Of a stretch of 64,000 bases of DNA, positions 408 through 57,027 are shown in pieces; the stretch's first letter is position 1, and each line of letters begins with the position of its first letter. Location of the stretch: IMG/VR virus record IMGVR_UViG_2920343190_000001, one strand, 5' to 3'. The DNA comes from a virus. A program made the translations under genes and the position numbers. Under the pieces are notes generated by a model. The model did not search any database, was not told where the DNA came from, and saw only the letters and a list, made by a program, of their open reading frames with translations.

Positions 408-966
408 ATTTTAATCTGACCATAGTGGAATCTAAATTTGATTATCTTCATAATATCCGCAGGAGAATATTTAATTTTAATCTGACCATAGTGGAATCTA
501 AATTCAAGTAAAAATTCATAATCTAAACCTTGGGCTATGTCATTTTAATCTGACCATAGTGGAATCTAAATAGAAGTATTATGATTCTATCTCTTACATA
601 ATTTATAGATTTTAATCTGACCATAGTGGAATCTAAATACCACGATATGGGAGCATATATTCAATCGTTTAAATTTTAATCTGACCATAGTGGAATCTAA
701 ATTTGTCAGATATACGCGTTGTCTCTCCTCTGAAATATCATTTTAATCTGACCATAGTGGAATCTAAATAACAAATGATGTAACAGCCTTAGCTATTTCT
801 ACAATTTTAATCTGACCATAGTGGAATCTAAATATGCGAAATAGGTGGAAATTCACTGAGATAATTTCAATTTTAATCTGACCATAGTGGAATCTAAATT
901 TTTTAGTTAGCATAAATTCTCCTCAAAAGTTTTAACATTTTAATCTGATCATAGTGGAATCTATAA
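408..966 (+). CRISPR. CRISPR array, mirrored copy in the fold-back arm
   Basis: 9 repeats ATTTTAATCTGACCATAGTGGAATCTAAAT with the same 8 spacers as 5684-6242. Confidence 0.95.
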
Positions 967-2597: not shown

Positions 2598-3477
2598 ATT
2601 TTCTCCTTTTTATTTTCATTTTACATTTTTTGTAATAAATAGTCAATGACTTAAGTTACAAAGAGTAAATTTATACAAATTACAAAGTTAGTTTACATAA
2701 CAACTATGTTTGTTTGATATGAGCAAAATAGGGTCTACCTTATTTTACAGTTTTCAATAAATTTAAAATTCAAAAAATAAAAAAGCGGACTAACGTCCGC
2801 TAAATTTTTTATCCCACACTTCTATAATCTGTAGTTTTTTTATAATATAAAGCTATATAACCTAATGTAAACATTATTTCATCAGTAGTATAATTATGAT
2901 TTCTGTTATTTTTAGTATATCCTATTATATTCATAGCTTTAAGATATATGTCTTCAGACATAGTAGGATGGTATGTAATATTATTTATCACTGTTAATCC
3001 AGAAGCTAACACGGATGAAATAAATGCTAGATTTTTTCTTTATCCATTAAATCTCTACAATGCTCTTCTTTTTTCCCCAATTTAGAACTGTAACTTCTTA
3101 AAAATATAATTATTTCTTCTAGTGATTTGCTCTCTAATTTTGTAACAACATTTTTATATTTATTCAATAAATTCTCCTTCGGCGTCTTGCCAAATAAATG
3201 AGAATATGGTATTATAATACTAGTTAAAAATCATAATACTATATTCCATAAAAATAAAAAGGTATAAATCGGCAAATTTATACTATCCATAATAATATAT
3301 GTAAATCGGCAAATTTAAATATATTATTAAATTTGCCGATTTACATATATTATTATGGATAGTATAAATTTGCCGATTTATACCTTTTTATTTTTATGGA
3401 ATATAGTATTATGATTTTTAACTAGTATTATAATACCATATTCTCATTTATTTGGCAAGACGCCGAAGGAGAATTTA

Positions 3478-5616: not shown

Positions 5617-5687
5617 CATTGGCTATATATTTATTGTAAATATTTTTTACAAGGACCTTAAAATTGATATTAGGATCCCAAAATTAT
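5617..5687 (+). repeat. Left copy of a 71-73 bp imperfect direct repeat bounding the CRISPR cassette
   Basis: CATTGGCTATATAT...AAATATTTTTTACAAGGACCTTAAAATTGATATTAGGATCCCAAAATTAT aligns with 6847-6919. Confidence 0.8.
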
Positions 5688-6242
5688 AGATTCCACTATG
5701 ATCAGATTAAAATGTTAAAACTTTTGAGGAGAATTTATGCTAACTAAAAAATTTAGATTCCACTATGGTCAGATTAAAATTGAAATTATCTCAGTGAATT
5801 TCCACCTATTTCGCATATTTAGATTCCACTATGGTCAGATTAAAATTGTAGAAATAGCTAAGGCTGTTACATCATTTGTTATTTAGATTCCACTATGGTC
5901 AGATTAAAATGATATTTCAGAGGAGAGACAACGCGTATATCTGACAAATTTAGATTCCACTATGGTCAGATTAAAATTTAAACGATTGAATATATGCTCC
6001 CATATCGTGGTATTTAGATTCCACTATGGTCAGATTAAAATCTATAAATTATGTAAGAGATAGAATCATAATACTTCTATTTAGATTCCACTATGGTCAG
6101 ATTAAAATGACATAGCCCAAGGTTTAGATTATGAATTTTTACTTGAATTTAGATTCCACTATGGTCAGATTAAAATTAAATATTCTCCTGCGGATATTAT
6201 GAAGATAATCAAATTTAGATTCCACTATGGTCAGATTAAAAT
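5684..6242 (-). CRISPR. Orphan CRISPR array, type I-B-like repeat: 9 repeats of 30 nt, 8 spacers of 34-38 nt
   Basis: Repeat ATTTAGATTCCACTATGGTCAGATTAAAAT starts at 5684 (degenerate), 5751, 5817, 5881, 5948, 6012, 6079, 6147 and 6213. Spacer lengths are 37, 36, 34, 37, 34, 37, 38 and 36. The degenerate repeat marks the trailer, so transcription is inferred to be on the minus strand. Confidence 0.97.
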
Positions 6243-6992: not shown

Positions 6993-8107
6993 ATGAAAAA
7001 TAAGACTATTGAAATTTATAATTATGAAGATGAGACCGCAAAAACACAAATAACAATCAATTCACTTTTTAAAAATGATACAATTTTATTTGAACAAATA
7101 GATATAGAAGATATTAAGATATTTTTAAAGCATGGAATTTTTGCTATAAAAGGATATATTCGACACGGGGATGATATAAACGGTGAAAATATATTAAAAT
7201 TAAATAAATGGTGCAGAACGAATGGGGATAAAATAGAATGGTTAAAAAGAATTAATATAAAAATTGTCAGAAGCGGCTATGTCATTAGAGAATATGTATT
7301 TAATGGATTTGTAGCTGATTATATAGAGTTTTTTAATAAGGGAAAACATATGTTCTATGTAGTTATAAGACAATATAAATTACAACCTTTAGATGGCAGA
7401 GGAGAAACAGGAGCCGATAGTTTAAGTTCTTATGTTGGAAATATTGAAATTAAAGATGTATCTAACGAATTAATTATTTTACCTATGGACTGGAGTAAAA
7501 CTCTAATGAGTACCAGTAACTTAGCGGCAACAATTGGAATTAGTCAAACTATAAAACATAATCCTCTATCAGTATCGTTTATACTGATAGCACATACGAC
7601 AGGGATGATAACTGAATTTGTAGCAGATGTTTATTTTGTAGCTAAAGGCACCCCAGATAAGATGGGAAGTTTTAATATAACTAGAGATTGGTTTTATAAG
7701 CCTCTAGGGAATATTATAAAAGATTGGATTGAATATAGAAATCCATCTATAGAAATAAGCAATAATTTAGGAGAAGATATATATAACATTGGAAATCTTG
7801 CATTTTCTATTTTTGATTTAGGTGGAAAAGTTATAAACGGATATAAAGCATTAAAAAATATAAAAGGCGAAGGAATTTTATTTACGATTAAAATAAAAAT
7901 GTAAAAGTTAGTCGTTTTGGTAGAGAGTTGCAACCAACAAAATATATAGGATTAACACCATTGAAATCAACAGTGCAATTTACTAAAGATATGGGGCTTG
8001 ATATATATGCAACAAAAGAGGGATTCAAATCTGAATTAGAAAAAAGAGAAAAAATCTATCCTACAATAAATAATATAATAATGCCGAAAAATACAGATAT
8101 AAAGTAA
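6993..8107 (+). CDS. Hcp/TssD-like tube-domain fusion protein, candidate effector (371 aa; intact at 54646-55761, single-A deletion near 7900 here)
   Basis: N-terminal about 130 aa (KLNKWC...IVRSGYVIREYVFNGFVADYIEFF...FYVVIRQ) resembles the so-called membrane-associated protease 1/TssD-like family. C-terminal extension has a hydrophobic stretch. Confidence 0.6.
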
Positions 8108-8114
8108 GGGGGAT

Positions 8115-8411
8115 TTGATGAAAATTGATTTCAAAAAAATATTTATAAAATACATTATACCAGCTTTCCTTTTAGTTTTAGGATTTGTTGTATATACATA
8201 TTTAACAACTGGCTATATGGCTCCATTTTCAACACCAGATATAGGATTATTTTTTGTAGCTTTATTATTTATGTTTGCATTTTGGGCTTTACTAGATTAT
8301 TTTCAACATGTTACAGGTATATTGATGGCTGAAACATGGGTAAGTAGAATAATTTTTATTATAGTAGCTTTAGGGTTATTTTATATCTATAGAATCAACG
8401 GAAGAATATAA
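8115..8411 (+). CDS. 3-TM membrane protein (98 aa), candidate immunity protein
   Basis: Three hydrophobic helices; GGGGG RBS immediately after the upstream gene's stop. Confidence 0.6.
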   Translation: MMKIDFKKIFIKYIIPAFLLVLGFVVYTYLTTGYMAPFSTPDIGLFFVALLFMFAFWALLDYFQHVTGILMAETWVSRIIFIIVALGLFYIYRINGRI

Positions 8412-20835: not shown

Positions 20836-21342
20836 TTATCCTCCTAAAGCTGCTTTAATTCCGTCATAAATATCTCTACCATCTATCACAAGTGTATTGT
20901 TAATTTGATCTATTTCGTGAATAACTTCATCATTTATTTCAAGCTTGTAGTAATCCAAATTTAGCTCCATTTCAGGTTCTAATTTCCCGGCCTTACTTAT
21001 TTCTCCCATTTTAAAACTTTTTACACTTCCTTTTACTGTTGCAACAATAGTAAGATAACTTAAATCATCTCCATCTACTTGCACCGCTGCTGCTAAAACT
21101 AAAGTAACTTTATTTTTTTTCAAAATTGATATAGCTTCTTTATCTACACCACGTATTTTTAAACTCATACTTAATGATTCAATACTATTTTTTAAAATCT
21201 CTTTTCTGGATCCTGTTCCTAAACCTGTTATTTCTTCTTCTTTATAACTTATTTCAGGCAAGTTATAACTCGCTAAACCTACTGTTTGGCTGCCGTTTAC
21301 TTTAACTAGTGCATCGGCTATTAAACTTGGAATTATTCCCAT
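20836..21342 (-). CDS. Major tail tube protein (P2 FII-like)
   Basis: LPEI..KEEEITGLG...YYKLEI.DEVIHEID.IN motif. Confidence 0.88.
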   Translation of the reverse strand: MGIIPSLIADALVKVNGSQTVGLASYNLPEISYKEEEITGLGTGSRKEILKNSIESLSMSLKIRGVDKEAISILKKNKVTLVLAAAVQVDGDDLSYLTIVATVKGSVKSFKMGEISKAGKLEPEMELNLDYYKLEINDEVIHEIDQINNTLVIDGRDIYDGIKAALGG

Positions 21343-51700: not shown

Positions 51701-52255
51701 GTGAAAGTTGGATATGCAAGAGTTTCAACAATAGATCAAAATGAAGAAAGACAAATTAGATCGCTTCAAGAAAATGGAGCCGAAGAAATTTTTATAGATA
51801 AAAAATCTGGAAAAAATACAGATAGAATAAAACTTAAAGAAATGCTTAATTTTATAAGAAAAGGAGATGTCGTAATTGTATCTGAATTTTCTAGATTGGC
51901 TAGGAATACAAAAGATTTATTAGAAATAACAGAATCTATAACAGCTAAAGGAGCAACTTTTAAAAGTTTGAAAGAAAGTATAGATACATCTTCACCTGCT
52001 GGCAAACTTATGTTGACAGTGATTGGTGGGATAGCTACATTTGAGAGAGAGATTCTTTTGGAGAGACAGCGAGAAGGAATTGCTATAGCAAAAGAGAAAG
52101 GTAAATATAAAAAACCTAAAAAAGAGATACCAAAAGATTTAAAAGAAACAATGATAAATTTTGAATTTAAAAAAGTAAAGGTAGCAAAATTTTATAATAT
52201 TTCAAGACCAACATTAGACAAATGGTTAAACTTACAAAAAAAAGAGGTTGATTAA
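51701..52255 (+). CDS. Serine resolvase (second pass)
   Basis: Identical to 4048-4602. Confidence 0.95.
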   Translation: MKVGYARVSTIDQNEERQIRSLQENGAEEIFIDKKSGKNTDRIKLKEMLNFIRKGDVVIVSEFSRLARNTKDLLEITESITAKGATFKSLKESIDTSSPAGKLMLTVIGGIATFEREILLERQREGIAIAKEKGKYKKPKKEIPKDLKETMINFEFKKVKVAKFYNISRPTLDKWLNLQKKEVD

Positions 52256-53337: not shown

Positions 53338-53896
53338 TTATAGATTCCACTATGATCAGATTAAAATGTTAAAACTTTTGAGGAGAATTTATGCTAACTA
53401 AAAAATTTAGATTCCACTATGGTCAGATTAAAATTGAAATTATCTCAGTGAATTTCCACCTATTTCGCATATTTAGATTCCACTATGGTCAGATTAAAAT
53501 TGTAGAAATAGCTAAGGCTGTTACATCATTTGTTATTTAGATTCCACTATGGTCAGATTAAAATGATATTTCAGAGGAGAGACAACGCGTATATCTGACA
53601 AATTTAGATTCCACTATGGTCAGATTAAAATTTAAACGATTGAATATATGCTCCCATATCGTGGTATTTAGATTCCACTATGGTCAGATTAAAATCTATA
53701 AATTATGTAAGAGATAGAATCATAATACTTCTATTTAGATTCCACTATGGTCAGATTAAAATGACATAGCCCAAGGTTTAGATTATGAATTTTTACTTGA
53801 ATTTAGATTCCACTATGGTCAGATTAAAATTAAATATTCTCCTGCGGATATTATGAAGATAATCAAATTTAGATTCCACTATGGTCAGATTAAAAT
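53338..53896 (-). CRISPR. CRISPR array (second pass)
   Basis: Same 9 repeats and 8 spacers as 5684-6242. Confidence 0.97.
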
Positions 53897-54318: not shown

Positions 54319-54468
54319 ATGAAATTAACATTTTTTGTAGCTTTAGCATTTATATTATTATTAACTGGCTGTAATAACAAAGAGACACGTAATTACAAAG
54401 TGAAAACAATAACAGCCGTTAATGATGGAAAAGAAGTTTATAGAAGTAGAGAAATTATAGAATTTTAA
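54319..54468 (+). CDS. Small lipoprotein (second pass)
   Basis: LTGC lipobox. Confidence 0.8.
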   Translation: MKLTFFVALAFILLLTGCNNKETRNYKVKTITAVNDGKEVYRSREIIEF

Positions 54469-54645
54469 ATTAAAAAGGGGATTATTAGTCCTATTTTTTC
54501 ATTGCCTATATATATTTGGTTGAAAATATTTTTGCAAAGACCTTAAAATCGATTTTACGACCCCAAAATTATTGTTTAAAATTTATATTGCCGATTCTAT
54601 ATTTTTTTAGATAAAATATAGAAAAACAAACTTAGGAGTCTCGGT

Positions 54646-55761
54646 ATGAAAAATAAGACTATTGAAATTTATAATTATGAAGATGAGACCGCAAAAACAC
54701 AAATAACAATCAATTCACTTTTTAAAAATGATACAATTTTATTTGAACAAATAGATATAGAAGATATTAAGATATTTTTAAAGCATGGAATTTTTGCTAT
54801 AAAAGGATATATTCGACACGGGGATGATATAAACGGTGAAAATATATTAAAATTAAATAAATGGTGCAGAACGAATGGGGATAAAATAGAATGGTTAAAA
54901 AGAATTAATATAAAAATTGTCAGAAGCGGCTATGTCATTAGAGAATATGTATTTAATGGATTTGTAGCTGATTATATAGAGTTTTTTAATAAGGGAAAAC
55001 ATATGTTCTATGTAGTTATAAGACAATATAAATTACAACCTTTAGATGGCAGAGGAGAAACAGGAGCCGATAGTTTAAGTTCTTATGTTGGAAATATTGA
55101 AATTAAAGATGTATCTAACGAATTAATTATTTTACCTATGGACTGGAGTAAAACTCTAATGAGTACCAGTAACTTAGCGGCAACAATTGGAATTAGTCAA
55201 ACTATAAAACATAATCCTCTATCAGTATCGTTTATACTGATAGCACATACGACAGGGATGATAACTGAATTTGTAGCAGATGTTTATTTTGTAGCTAAAG
55301 GCACCCCAGATAAGATGGGAAGTTTTAATATAACTAGAGATTGGTTTTATAAGCCTCTAGGGAATATTATAAAAGATTGGATTGAATATAGAAATCCATC
55401 TATAGAAATAAGCAATAATTTAGGAGAAGATATATATAACATTGGAAATCTTGCATTTTCTATTTTTGATTTAGGTGGAAAAGTTATAAACGGATATAAA
55501 GCATTAAAAAATATAAAAGGCGAAGGAATTTTATTTACGATTAAAATAAAAAATGTAAAAGTTAGTCGTTTTGGTAGAGAGTTGCAACCAACAAAATATA
55601 TAGGATTAACACCATTGAAATCAACAGTGCAATTTACTAAAGATATGGGGCTTGATATATATGCAACAAAAGAGGGATTCAAATCTGAATTAGAAAAAAG
55701 AGAAAAAATCTATCCTACAATAAATAATATAATAATGCCGAAAAATACAGATATAAAGTAA
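54646..55761 (+). CDS. Hcp/TssD-like domain fusion, candidate effector (intact, 371 aa)
   Basis: See 6993-8107. Confidence 0.62.
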   Translation: MKNKTIEIYNYEDETAKTQITINSLFKNDTILFEQIDIEDIKIFLKHGIFAIKGYIRHGDDINGENILKLNKWCRTNGDKIEWLKRINIKIVRSGYVIREYVFNGFVADYIEFFNKGKHMFYVVIRQYKLQPLDGRGETGADSLSSYVGNIEIKDVSNELIILPMDWSKTLMSTSNLAATIGISQTIKHNPLSVSFILIAHTTGMITEFVADVYFVAKGTPDKMGSFNITRDWFYKPLGNIIKDWIEYRNPSIEISNNLGEDIYNIGNLAFSIFDLGGKVINGYKALKNIKGEGILFTIKIKNVKVSRFGRELQPTKYIGLTPLKSTVQFTKDMGLDIYATKEGFKSELEKREKIYPTINNIIMPKNTDIK

Positions 55762-55768
55762 GGGGGAT

Positions 55769-56065
55769 TTGATGAAAATTGATTTCAAAAAAATATTTAT
55801 AAAATACATTATACCAGCTTTCCTTTTAGTTTTAGGATTTGTTGTATATACATATTTAACAACTGGCTATATGGCTCCATTTTCAACACCAGATATAGGA
55901 TTATTTTTTGTAGCTTTATTATTTATGTTTGCATTTTGGGCTTTACTAGATTATTTTCAACATGTTACAGGTATATTGATGGCTGAAACATGGGTAAGTA
56001 GAATAATTTTTATTATAGTAGCTTTAGGGTTATTTTATATCTATAGAATCAACGGAAGAATATAA
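55769..56065 (+). CDS. 3-TM candidate immunity protein (second pass)
   Basis: Identical to 8115-8411. Confidence 0.6.
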   Translation: MMKIDFKKIFIKYIIPAFLLVLGFVVYTYLTTGYMAPFSTPDIGLFFVALLFMFAFWALLDYFQHVTGILMAETWVSRIIFIIVALGLFYIYRINGRI

Positions 56066-56134
56066 ATAATAATTGTAAATTTTCATAATATAAAAAGGCT
56101 CCTCAGTTTTATTTTGAGGAGCCTTTTATTTTTT

Positions 56135-56581
56135 TTAAGGTTTAAAAATATATATTCCATTTTTGTCTGTGTGTATATCATCTACATGGATATATCCTTT
56201 TTTTAGAGTCACTTCTGGATCCTCGATTCTTGTAATCATATAATACTTTTCTTGATTGTTAATAATTTTCTCGTAAACCTTTTTTATATCCATTCCAGGA
56301 ACTTCAAAGTCTACACCTCTCCCCAGTACATGGGCACTTAAATATAATTTGTTTGATTTTACTTTATCTATTACAATGCTATCTAAAGTTGTTCTAAGCC
56401 CTCTTTGTGTTATCCCATGACTTGGTCTATTAACTAATACAGGAACCCCTAAATCTTCTCTTAAGGTATCCAGGAACAACCAGATATTGTCGCTTATATA
56501 TTTCCTAGCATCGTCTCCAAGTTTTTCATATACTTGTGGAGATACTAATTCTTTAACTTTAAAATATTTACTTTTGTACAT
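56135..56581 (-). CDS. M15 endolysin (second pass)
   Basis: Identical to 8481-8927. Confidence 0.85.
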   Translation of the reverse strand: MYKSKYFKVKELVSPQVYEKLGDDARKYISDNIWLFLDTLREDLGVPVLVNRPSHGITQRGLRTTLDSIVIDKVKSNKLYLSAHVLGRGVDFEVPGMDIKKVYEKIINNQEKYYMITRIEDPEVTLKKGYIHVDDIHTDKNGIYIFKP

Positions 56582-56583
56582 AC

Positions 56584-57027
56584 CTAATCTCCTTCTACAC
56601 TTTCTTTATGTTTTACTGAAGCTAAAATATTTTTAATTGGAGTAGGGATAGGAAAACCTAGATTTTCTAAGTTTTCCAAGATTGAAATACCCTCCATTAT
56701 GATGCACGCATTTATTAACATTTCTCTCAGGGAAAATCCGAGGTCTTTTAATGCTCCTGATTTGTCAATTTGATACATTACAGTTATTGCAATATATATT
56801 GAAGGTTTCTTAAAAATAAATCCTTTATACATGGTATGAGAGAAAACATTTCCATTTTTAACTCCTTTTAAAATACCCGTTATGACATCTAACACTGTTA
56901 GAATAAACAGAGATTCTAAAGCGTTATCAAAACCTCCTATAAGCGGAATAATAAAGCCTAAACAAAGGTATTTAAAAAGGTTCACCGTGTCTATTATTAA
57001 ATTTTCTAGTATATTTTTCATCATCAT
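56584..57027 (-). CDS. Holin (second pass, intact)
   Basis: Holin_4 motifs. Confidence 0.85.
   Translation of the reverse strand: MMMKNILENLIIDTVNLFKYLCLGFIIPLIGGFDNALESLFILTVLDVITGILKGVKNGNVFSHTMYKGFIFKKPSIYIAITVMYQIDKSGALKDLGFSLREMLINACIIMEGISILENLENLGFPIPTPIKNILASVKHKESVEGD

Follow-up and report, generated by a model that had tools for sequence, protein, structure and literature searches.

Genes and features of the cassette

The DNA analyzed here (the window, 64,000 nucleotides [nt], IMG/VR record IMGVR_UViG_2920343190_000001) is one contig region of a Fusobacteriaceae phage and belongs to contig C2 (69 kb) of genome G000. This work deals with a two-gene cassette at positions 54646-56065, which codes for a candidate toxin fused to a tail-tube-like domain and for a small transmembrane (TM) protein as candidate immunity partner. 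The following features were assigned to the cassette:

54588-54617, plus strand: promoter-like sequence TTGCCG-18-TAAAAT (9/12 matches), within the block conserved between cassette copies.
54646-55761, plus strand: large gene, open reading frame (ORF) with homologues, coding for a tube-fused candidate toxin of 371 amino acids (aa), a putative "evolved TssD/Hcp-like" effector.
55769-56065, plus strand: small gene, ORF from TTG, coding for a three-TM candidate immunity protein of 98 aa.
56093-56127, plus strand: intrinsic terminator (14-bp stem, then a T-run), common to the cassette and the convergent lysis genes.
6993-8411, plus strand: assembly repeat of the cassette, in which a one-base indel in a homopolymer near 7893 divides the large gene.

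The two ORFs were found as described in the initial annotation, bounded by a terminator and convergent on the lysis genes. The large gene is preceded at a distance of 8 nt by the ribosome-binding site TAGGAG. For the small gene, the ATG at 55772 behind AGGGGG is a more likely start than the TTG and would give a product of 97 aa; its three hydrophobic segments comprise approximately aa 15-32, 43-62, and 76-92. The terminator is significant (1 found versus 0.2 expected) and separates the cassette from the convergent genes for endolysin (56135-56581) and holin (56584-57027). The promoter proposed in the initial annotation is present as a sequence, but such matches are not above chance in the AT-rich stretch (23 versus 17.8 ± 4.2 expected).

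The stretch represents a 47.65-kb unit that was assembled approximately 1.35 times. The copy of the cassette at 6993-8411, previously taken for a further locus, differs from that at 54646-56065 only by a single A in a homopolymer run; this difference frameshifts the large gene into ORFs of 303 and 59 aa. As the unit forms a concatemer in the assembly, both copies represent the same locus. The copies of the unit differ by homopolymer indels, and frameshifts in the window therefore need careful reading. The unit is a myovirus-type element that encodes a sheath, a tape measure, a terminase, and a major head protein in addition to Rep-type initiators and a ParB-like methyltransferase. In this phage, the cassette would be a separately transcribed moron after the lysis genes.

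The N-terminal domain of the large protein resembles tail tubes and Hcp

Pfam, PHROGs, NCBIfam, PADLOC, and PDB sequence searches with the 371-aa and 98-aa proteins gave no useful match, and PADLOC assigned neither of them to a defense system at E ≤ 1. The family of the 371-aa protein is small: among 1.8 billion proteins, it amounts to 34 clusters when grouped at 90% identity and to 13 representatives when grouped at 50%. Its full-length members comprise 314-388 aa in a single architecture, and the named ones derive from Fusobacterium and Cetobacterium. The N-terminal domain (N-domain) was delimited by AlphaFold2 (AF2) modeling, structural comparison, and hhalign:

54682-55032, plus strand: N-terminal tube/Hcp-like domain (aa 13-129).

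AF2 modeled this region at a predicted local distance difference test score (pLDDT) of 65-90. In an exhaustive structural comparison (VIA), the top 50 matches of the model were all tail tubes, Hcp, or tube-like baseplate hub proteins (Z 7.7-11.2), and Foldseek agreed. Comparison with Bacteroides fragilis Hcp5 and Burkholderia Hcp1 gave Z values of 10.1-10.2 at root-mean-square deviations (rmsd) of 2.2-2.7 Å, and the lowest rmsd values were obtained with Hcp proteins (e.g. 2.2 Å for B. fragilis Hcp5). As judged from the model, the N-domain has the tail-tube/Hcp fold, in line with the tube-like N-terminus that the initial annotation had anticipated. Among the AlphaFold DB clusters, the fourth match of the N-domain is named "membrane-associated protease 1", the family to which the initial annotation had related the N-terminus. 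This similarity was confirmed with the stand-alone proteins of that name from the host (hhalign probability 98.3%, E 1.4e-14, 108 columns). The profile searches were reciprocal: the profile of the 371-aa family finds the stand-alone proteins, and that of the stand-alone proteins finds the fusions.

No similarity was found between the N-domain and the product of the ORF that follows the phage sheath gene (20836-21342; hhalign probability 0.1%). This ORF, located on the minus strand, matches PHROG 55, which is labeled "head closure", so its identity as the phage tube gene is positional only; either the PHROG label or the positional assumption is wrong.

A T6SS-like host operon contains the stand-alone tube gene

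The family profile was searched against 131 Fusobacteriaceae genomes and retrieved full-length relatives of the fusion protein together with stand-alone proteins of approximately 145 aa in a conserved chromosomal locus. The stand-alone proteins have 144-146 aa and are named "membrane-associated protease 1" by NCBI and UniRef. Their family comprises 1432 proteins at E ≤ 1e-5, which occur in Fusobacterium, Cetobacterium, Leptotrichia, Orenia, and Paenibacillus. A comparison with the Pfam family TssD (PF17642) gave an E value of 9e-5 and 22.7 bits, which is under the cut-off of 25.8. There was no hint of protease activity in the family and profile comparisons of the stand-alone family (L048:9962-10399, proteins P0047-P0166), and by these comparisons the name is a misnomer for a predicted TssD/Hcp-like tube protein. 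In the genome of the window, the locus comprises:

G000:C13, approximately 117771-139700 (around 22 kb, loci L048 and L052): co-directional operon resembling a type VI secretion system (T6SS), assigned by gene content.
G000:C13:119961-120398: stand-alone tube gene of this operon.

The first gene of the operon codes for a 719-aa protein with ESM features resembling those of TssC and phage sheaths (0.93), a result to be taken as a lead only. The tube gene is followed by genes for a 254-aa protein of unknown function, a J-domain protein, two FHA proteins, a TPR protein, a Ser/Thr kinase, and several unknown proteins. In addition, the operon contains a second tube paralogue (hhalign probability 85%) and a VgrG-like protein with weak matches (Phage_GPD, E 5e-7; TIGR01646, E 6e-7), and the last listed gene codes for a 1196-aa protein ending in a strongly matching, PAAR-like DUF4280 domain (E 5e-19). 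It is the occurrence of the second tube paralogue, the VgrG-like hub, DUF4280, two FHA proteins, the kinase, and the J-domain protein in a single run that makes the operon look T6SS-like. The canonical models for Hcp (PF05638) and TssC (PF17541) found nothing in the genome of the window, and the term T6SS-like is therefore used instead of T6SS. In the literature searched, no report of a T6SS in Fusobacteriota/Fusobacteria was found.

The gene for the 719-aa sheath-like protein is present in 18 of the 131 genomes, among them all five that contain a 371-type fusion. One of these five is the single positive among 23 genomes of its genus, and the genome of the window is the only positive among three of its genus. 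This co-occurrence would fit a dependence of the fusion protein on the putative host machine.

Conserved core of the C-terminal domain

The initial annotation had left open whether the toxin would be loaded onto a host apparatus or onto the tail tube of the phage, and it had noted an apolar stretch in the additional C-terminal residues. This extension of approximately 240 aa (C-domain) is present and conserved throughout the 371-aa family. Alignments of the homologues revealed the following best-conserved part:

55216-55365, plus strand: core of the C-domain (aa 191-240).

Within the core, five residues (E208, D212, N228, T230, and D232) are invariant, and three more (H201, G204, and R231) are nearly invariant. 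The hydrophobicity of the supposed apolar stretch turned out to be marginal (Kyte-Doolittle maximum of 1.47 at aa 201), and the invariant H, E, and D residues within it speak against a classical TM helix. The C-domain, the candidate payload, is helical with a moderately hydrophobic conserved core. ESM Atlas leads for it (PT-TG, 0.83; Tle1-like_C, 0.78) were dismissed, as they stayed under the level reached by shuffled proteins.

The multi-TM partner together with the helical, moderately hydrophobic core points to a membrane target. Most probably, the predicted payload attacks the cytoplasmic membrane of a neighbor cell, by forming pores or by acting as an enzyme embedded in the membrane. The latter mechanism is kept as an option because of the invariant polar residues (H/E/D and N-x-T-R-D), which suggest an enzyme-like site. 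Membrane-targeting T6SS effectors with membrane immunity proteins are represented by the pairs VasX/TsiV2, Tse4/Tsi4, and Tme/Tmi. The cassette resembles these in combining a helical, moderately hydrophobic candidate toxin with a small candidate immunity protein of the inner membrane; it differs in the lack of any sequence or fold match to them and in that its membrane target is deduced.

A function of the two proteins in superinfection exclusion was also considered. A membrane-associated, tube-like ring held by the TM protein would dock on incoming contractile phages and block their tube tip or DNA channel. Tube-fold proteins stack on each other during tail assembly, and the cassette adjoins the lysis genes, a frequent site of superinfection exclusion genes, and is transcribed apart from the late genes. 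However, the 371-aa protein has neither an N-terminal signal peptide nor a firm TM helix, the catalytic-looking conserved core of the C-domain would have no role, and both the dependence on the host operon and the carriage on conjugative plasmids and islands (see below) would be unexplained. Such a function therefore appears very improbable.

A sequence motif, Y-P-T-x-x-N-I-x-M-P-K-N-T-D-x-K/R, was observed at the C-terminal end of the large protein (aa 357-371; 55714-55761 in the window). Sub-families with an overall identity of only 55-76% share the motif, whereas others lack it, and it could be a processing or recognition signal.

The small TM protein is co-conserved and varies together with the large protein

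With two exceptions, the full-length homologue loci examined contain a homologous gene for a TM protein of 93-98 aa within a few bases 3' of the large gene; two of the loci are duplicate copies counted from the genome of the window (L010 equals L031, and L012 equals L044). Three copies of the cassette in this genome (on the phage and on contigs C9 and C13) share 92-100% DNA identity outside two short patches. Conservation between the copies runs from about 54550-54610 to approximately 56130, and their 5' flanks are unrelated. The two patches are:

55329-55448, plus strand: hypervariable patch 1 (aa 229-268 of the 371-aa protein), 65-82% nt identity versus 92-100% in the flanks.
55809-55928, plus strand: hypervariable patch 2 (aa 14-54 of the TM protein, comprising TM1, loop, and TM2), approximately 50% nt identity versus 88-97% in the flanks.

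Identity in patch 1 correlated with that in the variable half of the TM protein (r 0.30, p 0.0016) in a partial Mantel test with the backbone signal removed, using 18 distinct pairs of large and TM genes. In the control, patch 1 showed no such correlation with the conserved half of the TM protein (r -0.02, p 0.57). In the pair L040/L058, conservation is higher in both patches than in the backbones. The co-variation of the patches and the pattern in L040/L058 are as predicted for recognition between a cognate toxin and its immunity protein. A diversity-generating retroelement was rejected as the source of the patches; their differences are not confined to one base type. The effector-immunity relationship suggested in the initial annotation thus gains support from the nearly constant co-conservation of the downstream TM gene and from the matched patches.

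Relatives of the cassette and their genomic context

The genome of the window contains four cassettes, located on the phage, on a C9 prophage, on a non-phage island of contig C13, and on the small Rep plasmid C7. The C9 cassette likewise sits after holin and lysin genes, and the proteins of the C13 island are 93-95% identical to those of the phage cassette. Diverged paralogues are present on plasmids free of tail genes, with 48% identity on the small Rep plasmid and approximately 50% and 70% on conjugative plasmids or integrative and conjugative elements. Some members adjoin genes for resolvase, integrase, small terminase, and Rep3, as found on phage-plasmids; others adjoin ArdC and topoisomerase or TrbL and MobA genes of conjugative elements, or amidase or CHAP lysin genes at prophage ends. 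From this distribution on phage-plasmids, conjugative elements, and prophage ends, the cassette is regarded as general cargo of mobile genetic elements (MGEs) and not as a phage part, and the idea of a phage-specific cassette was abandoned.

Within sub-groups, the N-domains are 86-94% identical, the C-domains 57-64%, and the TM proteins 42-56%. The variable C-termini expected from the initial annotation were not observed in the 371-aa family itself: all 34 clusters and 13 representatives have one architecture with one conserved C-domain, which rules out wholesale C-terminus swapping, and the variation is confined to the 40-aa patch. A second class of C-domain was found only in remote relatives, which keep the N-domain type. 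The remote locus L018 has a very diverged version of the C-domain of the 371-aa family (hhalign probability 92.8%), whereas L025, L034, and L041 form the second class, with 33% mutual identity and no detectable match to the first. A small TM gene of its own lies downstream of each of these three, and in L025 and L034 an extra stand-alone tube gene precedes the fusion. As in polymorphic toxins, two C-domain classes occur on one N-domain type, each with its own small TM gene. Apparently longer fusions (frames of 581 and 731 aa) were rejected as effectors, being hub or paralogue genes of the host operon.

The genomic context bears on two further explanations. In the first, the 371-aa protein would be a virion payload, loaded in or on the contractile tail of the phage and injected at infection, as was proposed for MuF toxins in capsids; this phage-borne polymorphic toxin family sets a precedent (PMC5576092), and the phage itself, a myovirus, has genes for a sheath and a tape measure. 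The N-domain is, however, unlike the putative tube of the phage, the cassette is oppositely oriented, has its own terminator, and lies outside the structural operon, and a near-identical cassette is found in a non-phage island and diverged paralogues on plasmids without tail genes. A virion payload is accordingly regarded as highly unlikely. Of the two delivery routes initially proposed, the phage tail is disfavored by the missing similarity to the putative phage tube and by the tail-less plasmids and islands that carry the cassette. The host apparatus is favored by the tube gene family of the T6SS-like operon and by the co-occurrence.

In the second, the cassette would be an anti-phage abortive-infection or toxin-antitoxin module, in which the tube-like domain serves as decoy or sensor of a phage tail or tube and frees a C-domain that damages the membrane, and the TM protein acts as antitoxin or membrane anchor. 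The moron position after the lysis genes and the carriage on plasmids and islands fit this explanation, as do the four paralogues in one genome, the serine recombinase that frequently adjoins the cassette, and the sharp hypervariable patches, which suit an arms race. The negative PADLOC result argues against it, the N-domain is homologous to the T6SS-like tube of the host and not to phage tubes, and a self-contained defense system would not need the strict co-occurrence with the host operon. We consider an anti-phage module unlikely, although less so than the virion payload or superinfection exclusion.

Beside one of the cassettes, genes for a 388-aa protein with the P-loop-like motif GANATGKT and a 177-aa partner were observed (L056:141-1833); they are possibly an AAA/ATPase-type defense pair.

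Comparison with known effector systems

The closest parallel is provided by the specialized or "evolved" Hcp effectors Hcp-ET1-5 of Enterobacteriaceae (Ma et al. 2017, cited in PMC8262886), which are defined by an N-terminal tube domain and a C-terminal extension of >60 aa. The cassette shares with them the N-terminal tube domain, here homologous to a T6SS-like tube gene of the same genome, the long C-terminal candidate payload, and a candidate cognate immunity gene directly downstream. Evolved Hcp effectors are also often encoded at orphan loci off the main cluster, like the cassette. In contrast to them, the cassette has a tube domain of the "membrane-associated protease 1" family and not of Pfam T6SS_HCP (PF05638 was not found in the genome), the host belongs to the Fusobacteriota, the payload domain is unassigned, the candidate immunity protein has several TM segments, and the cassette is carried by phages and plasmids.

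The non-canonical T6SS subtypes iii (Bacteroidota) and ii (Francisella) have TssD-type tubes and DUF4280 PAAR-like tips, according to PMC13402684 (citing Lays 2016 and Rigard 2016). The host system resembles them in a tube protein near the PF17642 cut-off, the DUF4280 protein and VgrG-like hub of the operon, and the best rmsd of the N-domain to B. fragilis Hcp5. It differs from them in that no TssB/C, TssE-K, or TssN-R families were recognized in the operon; in place of a recognizable ClpV, the operon has genes for J-domain, FHA, and TPR proteins and a kinase.

With the MuF polymorphic toxins of temperate phages (Jamet et al. 2017, PMC5576092), the cassette shares the carriage by a phage, a conserved structural-type N-domain, a C-terminal candidate toxin, and a downstream candidate immunity gene. 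Unlike in MuF toxins, the N-domain copies a host secretion-tube protein and not a phage head protein, and the cassette also occurs on plasmids. The large protein had no Pfam or PHROG match to Phage_Mu_F, and its gene lies outside the structural module.

Neighboring features and assembly

A CRISPR-like array is present on the phage, with nine copies of the 29-nt repeat TTTAGATTCCACTATGGTCAGATTAAAAT at a spacing of 64-68 nt; the chance expectation is none. It was found at 53339-53896 (plus strand), approximately 750 nt upstream of the cassette, and also at 5685-6242 (plus strand) and 408-965 (minus strand). Directly upstream of the cassette, a lipoprotein-like ORF of 49 aa (54319-54468, plus strand) contains the lipobox LLTGC; it is outside the block conserved between the cassette copies and gave weak PHROG hints to Cor and Rz-like lipoproteins.

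A gene for a small serine recombinase (resolvase, 51701-52255, plus strand) recurs at a distance of 0.4-6 kb from the cassette in different elements and may mobilize or invert the region. The C13 copy is 99.5% identical to the phage resolvase. The copies near other cassettes are:

G000:C13:29243-29797
L041:1-380
L053:5069-5638
L055:4889-5458

An inverted, noisy fold-back opens the contig (1-6650 of the window and G000:C2:1-3478, palindrome center near window position 3325), and contig C7 is likewise palindromic. The fold-back, the concatemer copies, and the C7 palindrome are probably artefacts of long-read assembly.

Proposed function of the cassette and its implications

We consider it fairly probable that the cassette is a mobile effector-immunity cartridge for a chromosomal, T6SS-like contractile machine of the host. 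The 371-aa protein would be a specialized ("evolved") tube subunit, and its N-terminal 130 residues represent a copy of the host tube protein that has diverged. Through this domain, the protein could be incorporated into the host tube or cap it, and the fusion would then be expelled with the tube. The 240-residue C-domain would serve as the payload, acting on the cytoplasmic membrane of a neighbor cell, and the co-transcribed three-TM protein would bind the payload in the membrane and thereby shield producer cells and their kin. The specificity of the alleles would depend on the 40-residue patch in the toxin and, in the immunity protein, on the half that comprises TM1, loop, and TM2. Between strains that own the machine, the cartridge would travel on phages, phage-plasmids, conjugative plasmids, and islands.

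The anti-phage module, superinfection exclusion, and virion payload each explain fewer facts than an evolved Hcp effector. The latter is the simplest explanation because it accounts for the homology to the host tube, the co-occurrence, the missing signal peptide, the TM partner, the paired patches, and the carriage by tail-less elements.

Several points weigh against this assignment. On the side of the fusion protein, no Pfam match was obtained at E ≤ 1, including PF05638 (T6SS_HCP) and PF17642 (TssD), and AF2 modeled the C-domain at a pLDDT of <50 (45), both in the whole protein and alone (27-row alignments). The label "membrane toxin" derives from the TM partner and the moderate hydrophobicity, and we infer toxicity, immunity, and secretion of the cassette alike from sequence. 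The co-variation of the patches is modest, and with only approximately 400 nt between them, shared recombination tracts could mimic it. Hypervariable two-gene modules on MGEs are also typical of anti-phage systems. On the side of the host, the PDB profile search, PF17541, and hhalign versus the phage sheath were all negative for the 719-aa protein as a sheath, and no TssE-K, TssN-R, baseplate, or membrane-complex genes were recognized in the operon, the function of which as a working T6SS is putative. The co-occurrence spans only about three independent genera or lineages, and the genomes G091 and G009, which contain remote fusions, have no 719-aa gene.

Taking both sides together, the cassette most likely re-arms and protects an as yet undescribed type VI-like machine of its host. 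A wider generalization seems quite possible, if short of probable: Fusobacteriota and, judging from the distribution of the tube family, many Bacillota would own an undescribed T6SS-like contractile weapon with a mis-annotated tube, for which temperate phages, phage-plasmids, and conjugative plasmids trade tube-toxin/immunity cartridges, with a self/non-self code written in two patches, a 40-residue toxin helix and the TM1-loop-TM2 region of the immunity protein. Effectors of the evolved Hcp type and effector-immunity cassettes on MGEs are of known kinds; what is new here is the family of the tube domain, the phylum, the candidate toxin domain, and an allelic design with two patches.

If true, the cassette would be the first concrete effector-immunity pair of a contractile secretion system in Fusobacteriota, which matter in gut and oral ecology, and the widespread "membrane-associated protease 1" family would have to be re-annotated as a secretion-tube subunit. 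Its alleles, >95% identical outside two short patches, would offer a compact natural system for studying the specificity between toxin and immunity protein, in a candidate toxin domain that matches no known fold. Lysogenic conversion and plasmid transfer would then re-arm the weapon of the host, and MGEs would thereby shape competition at the strain level.

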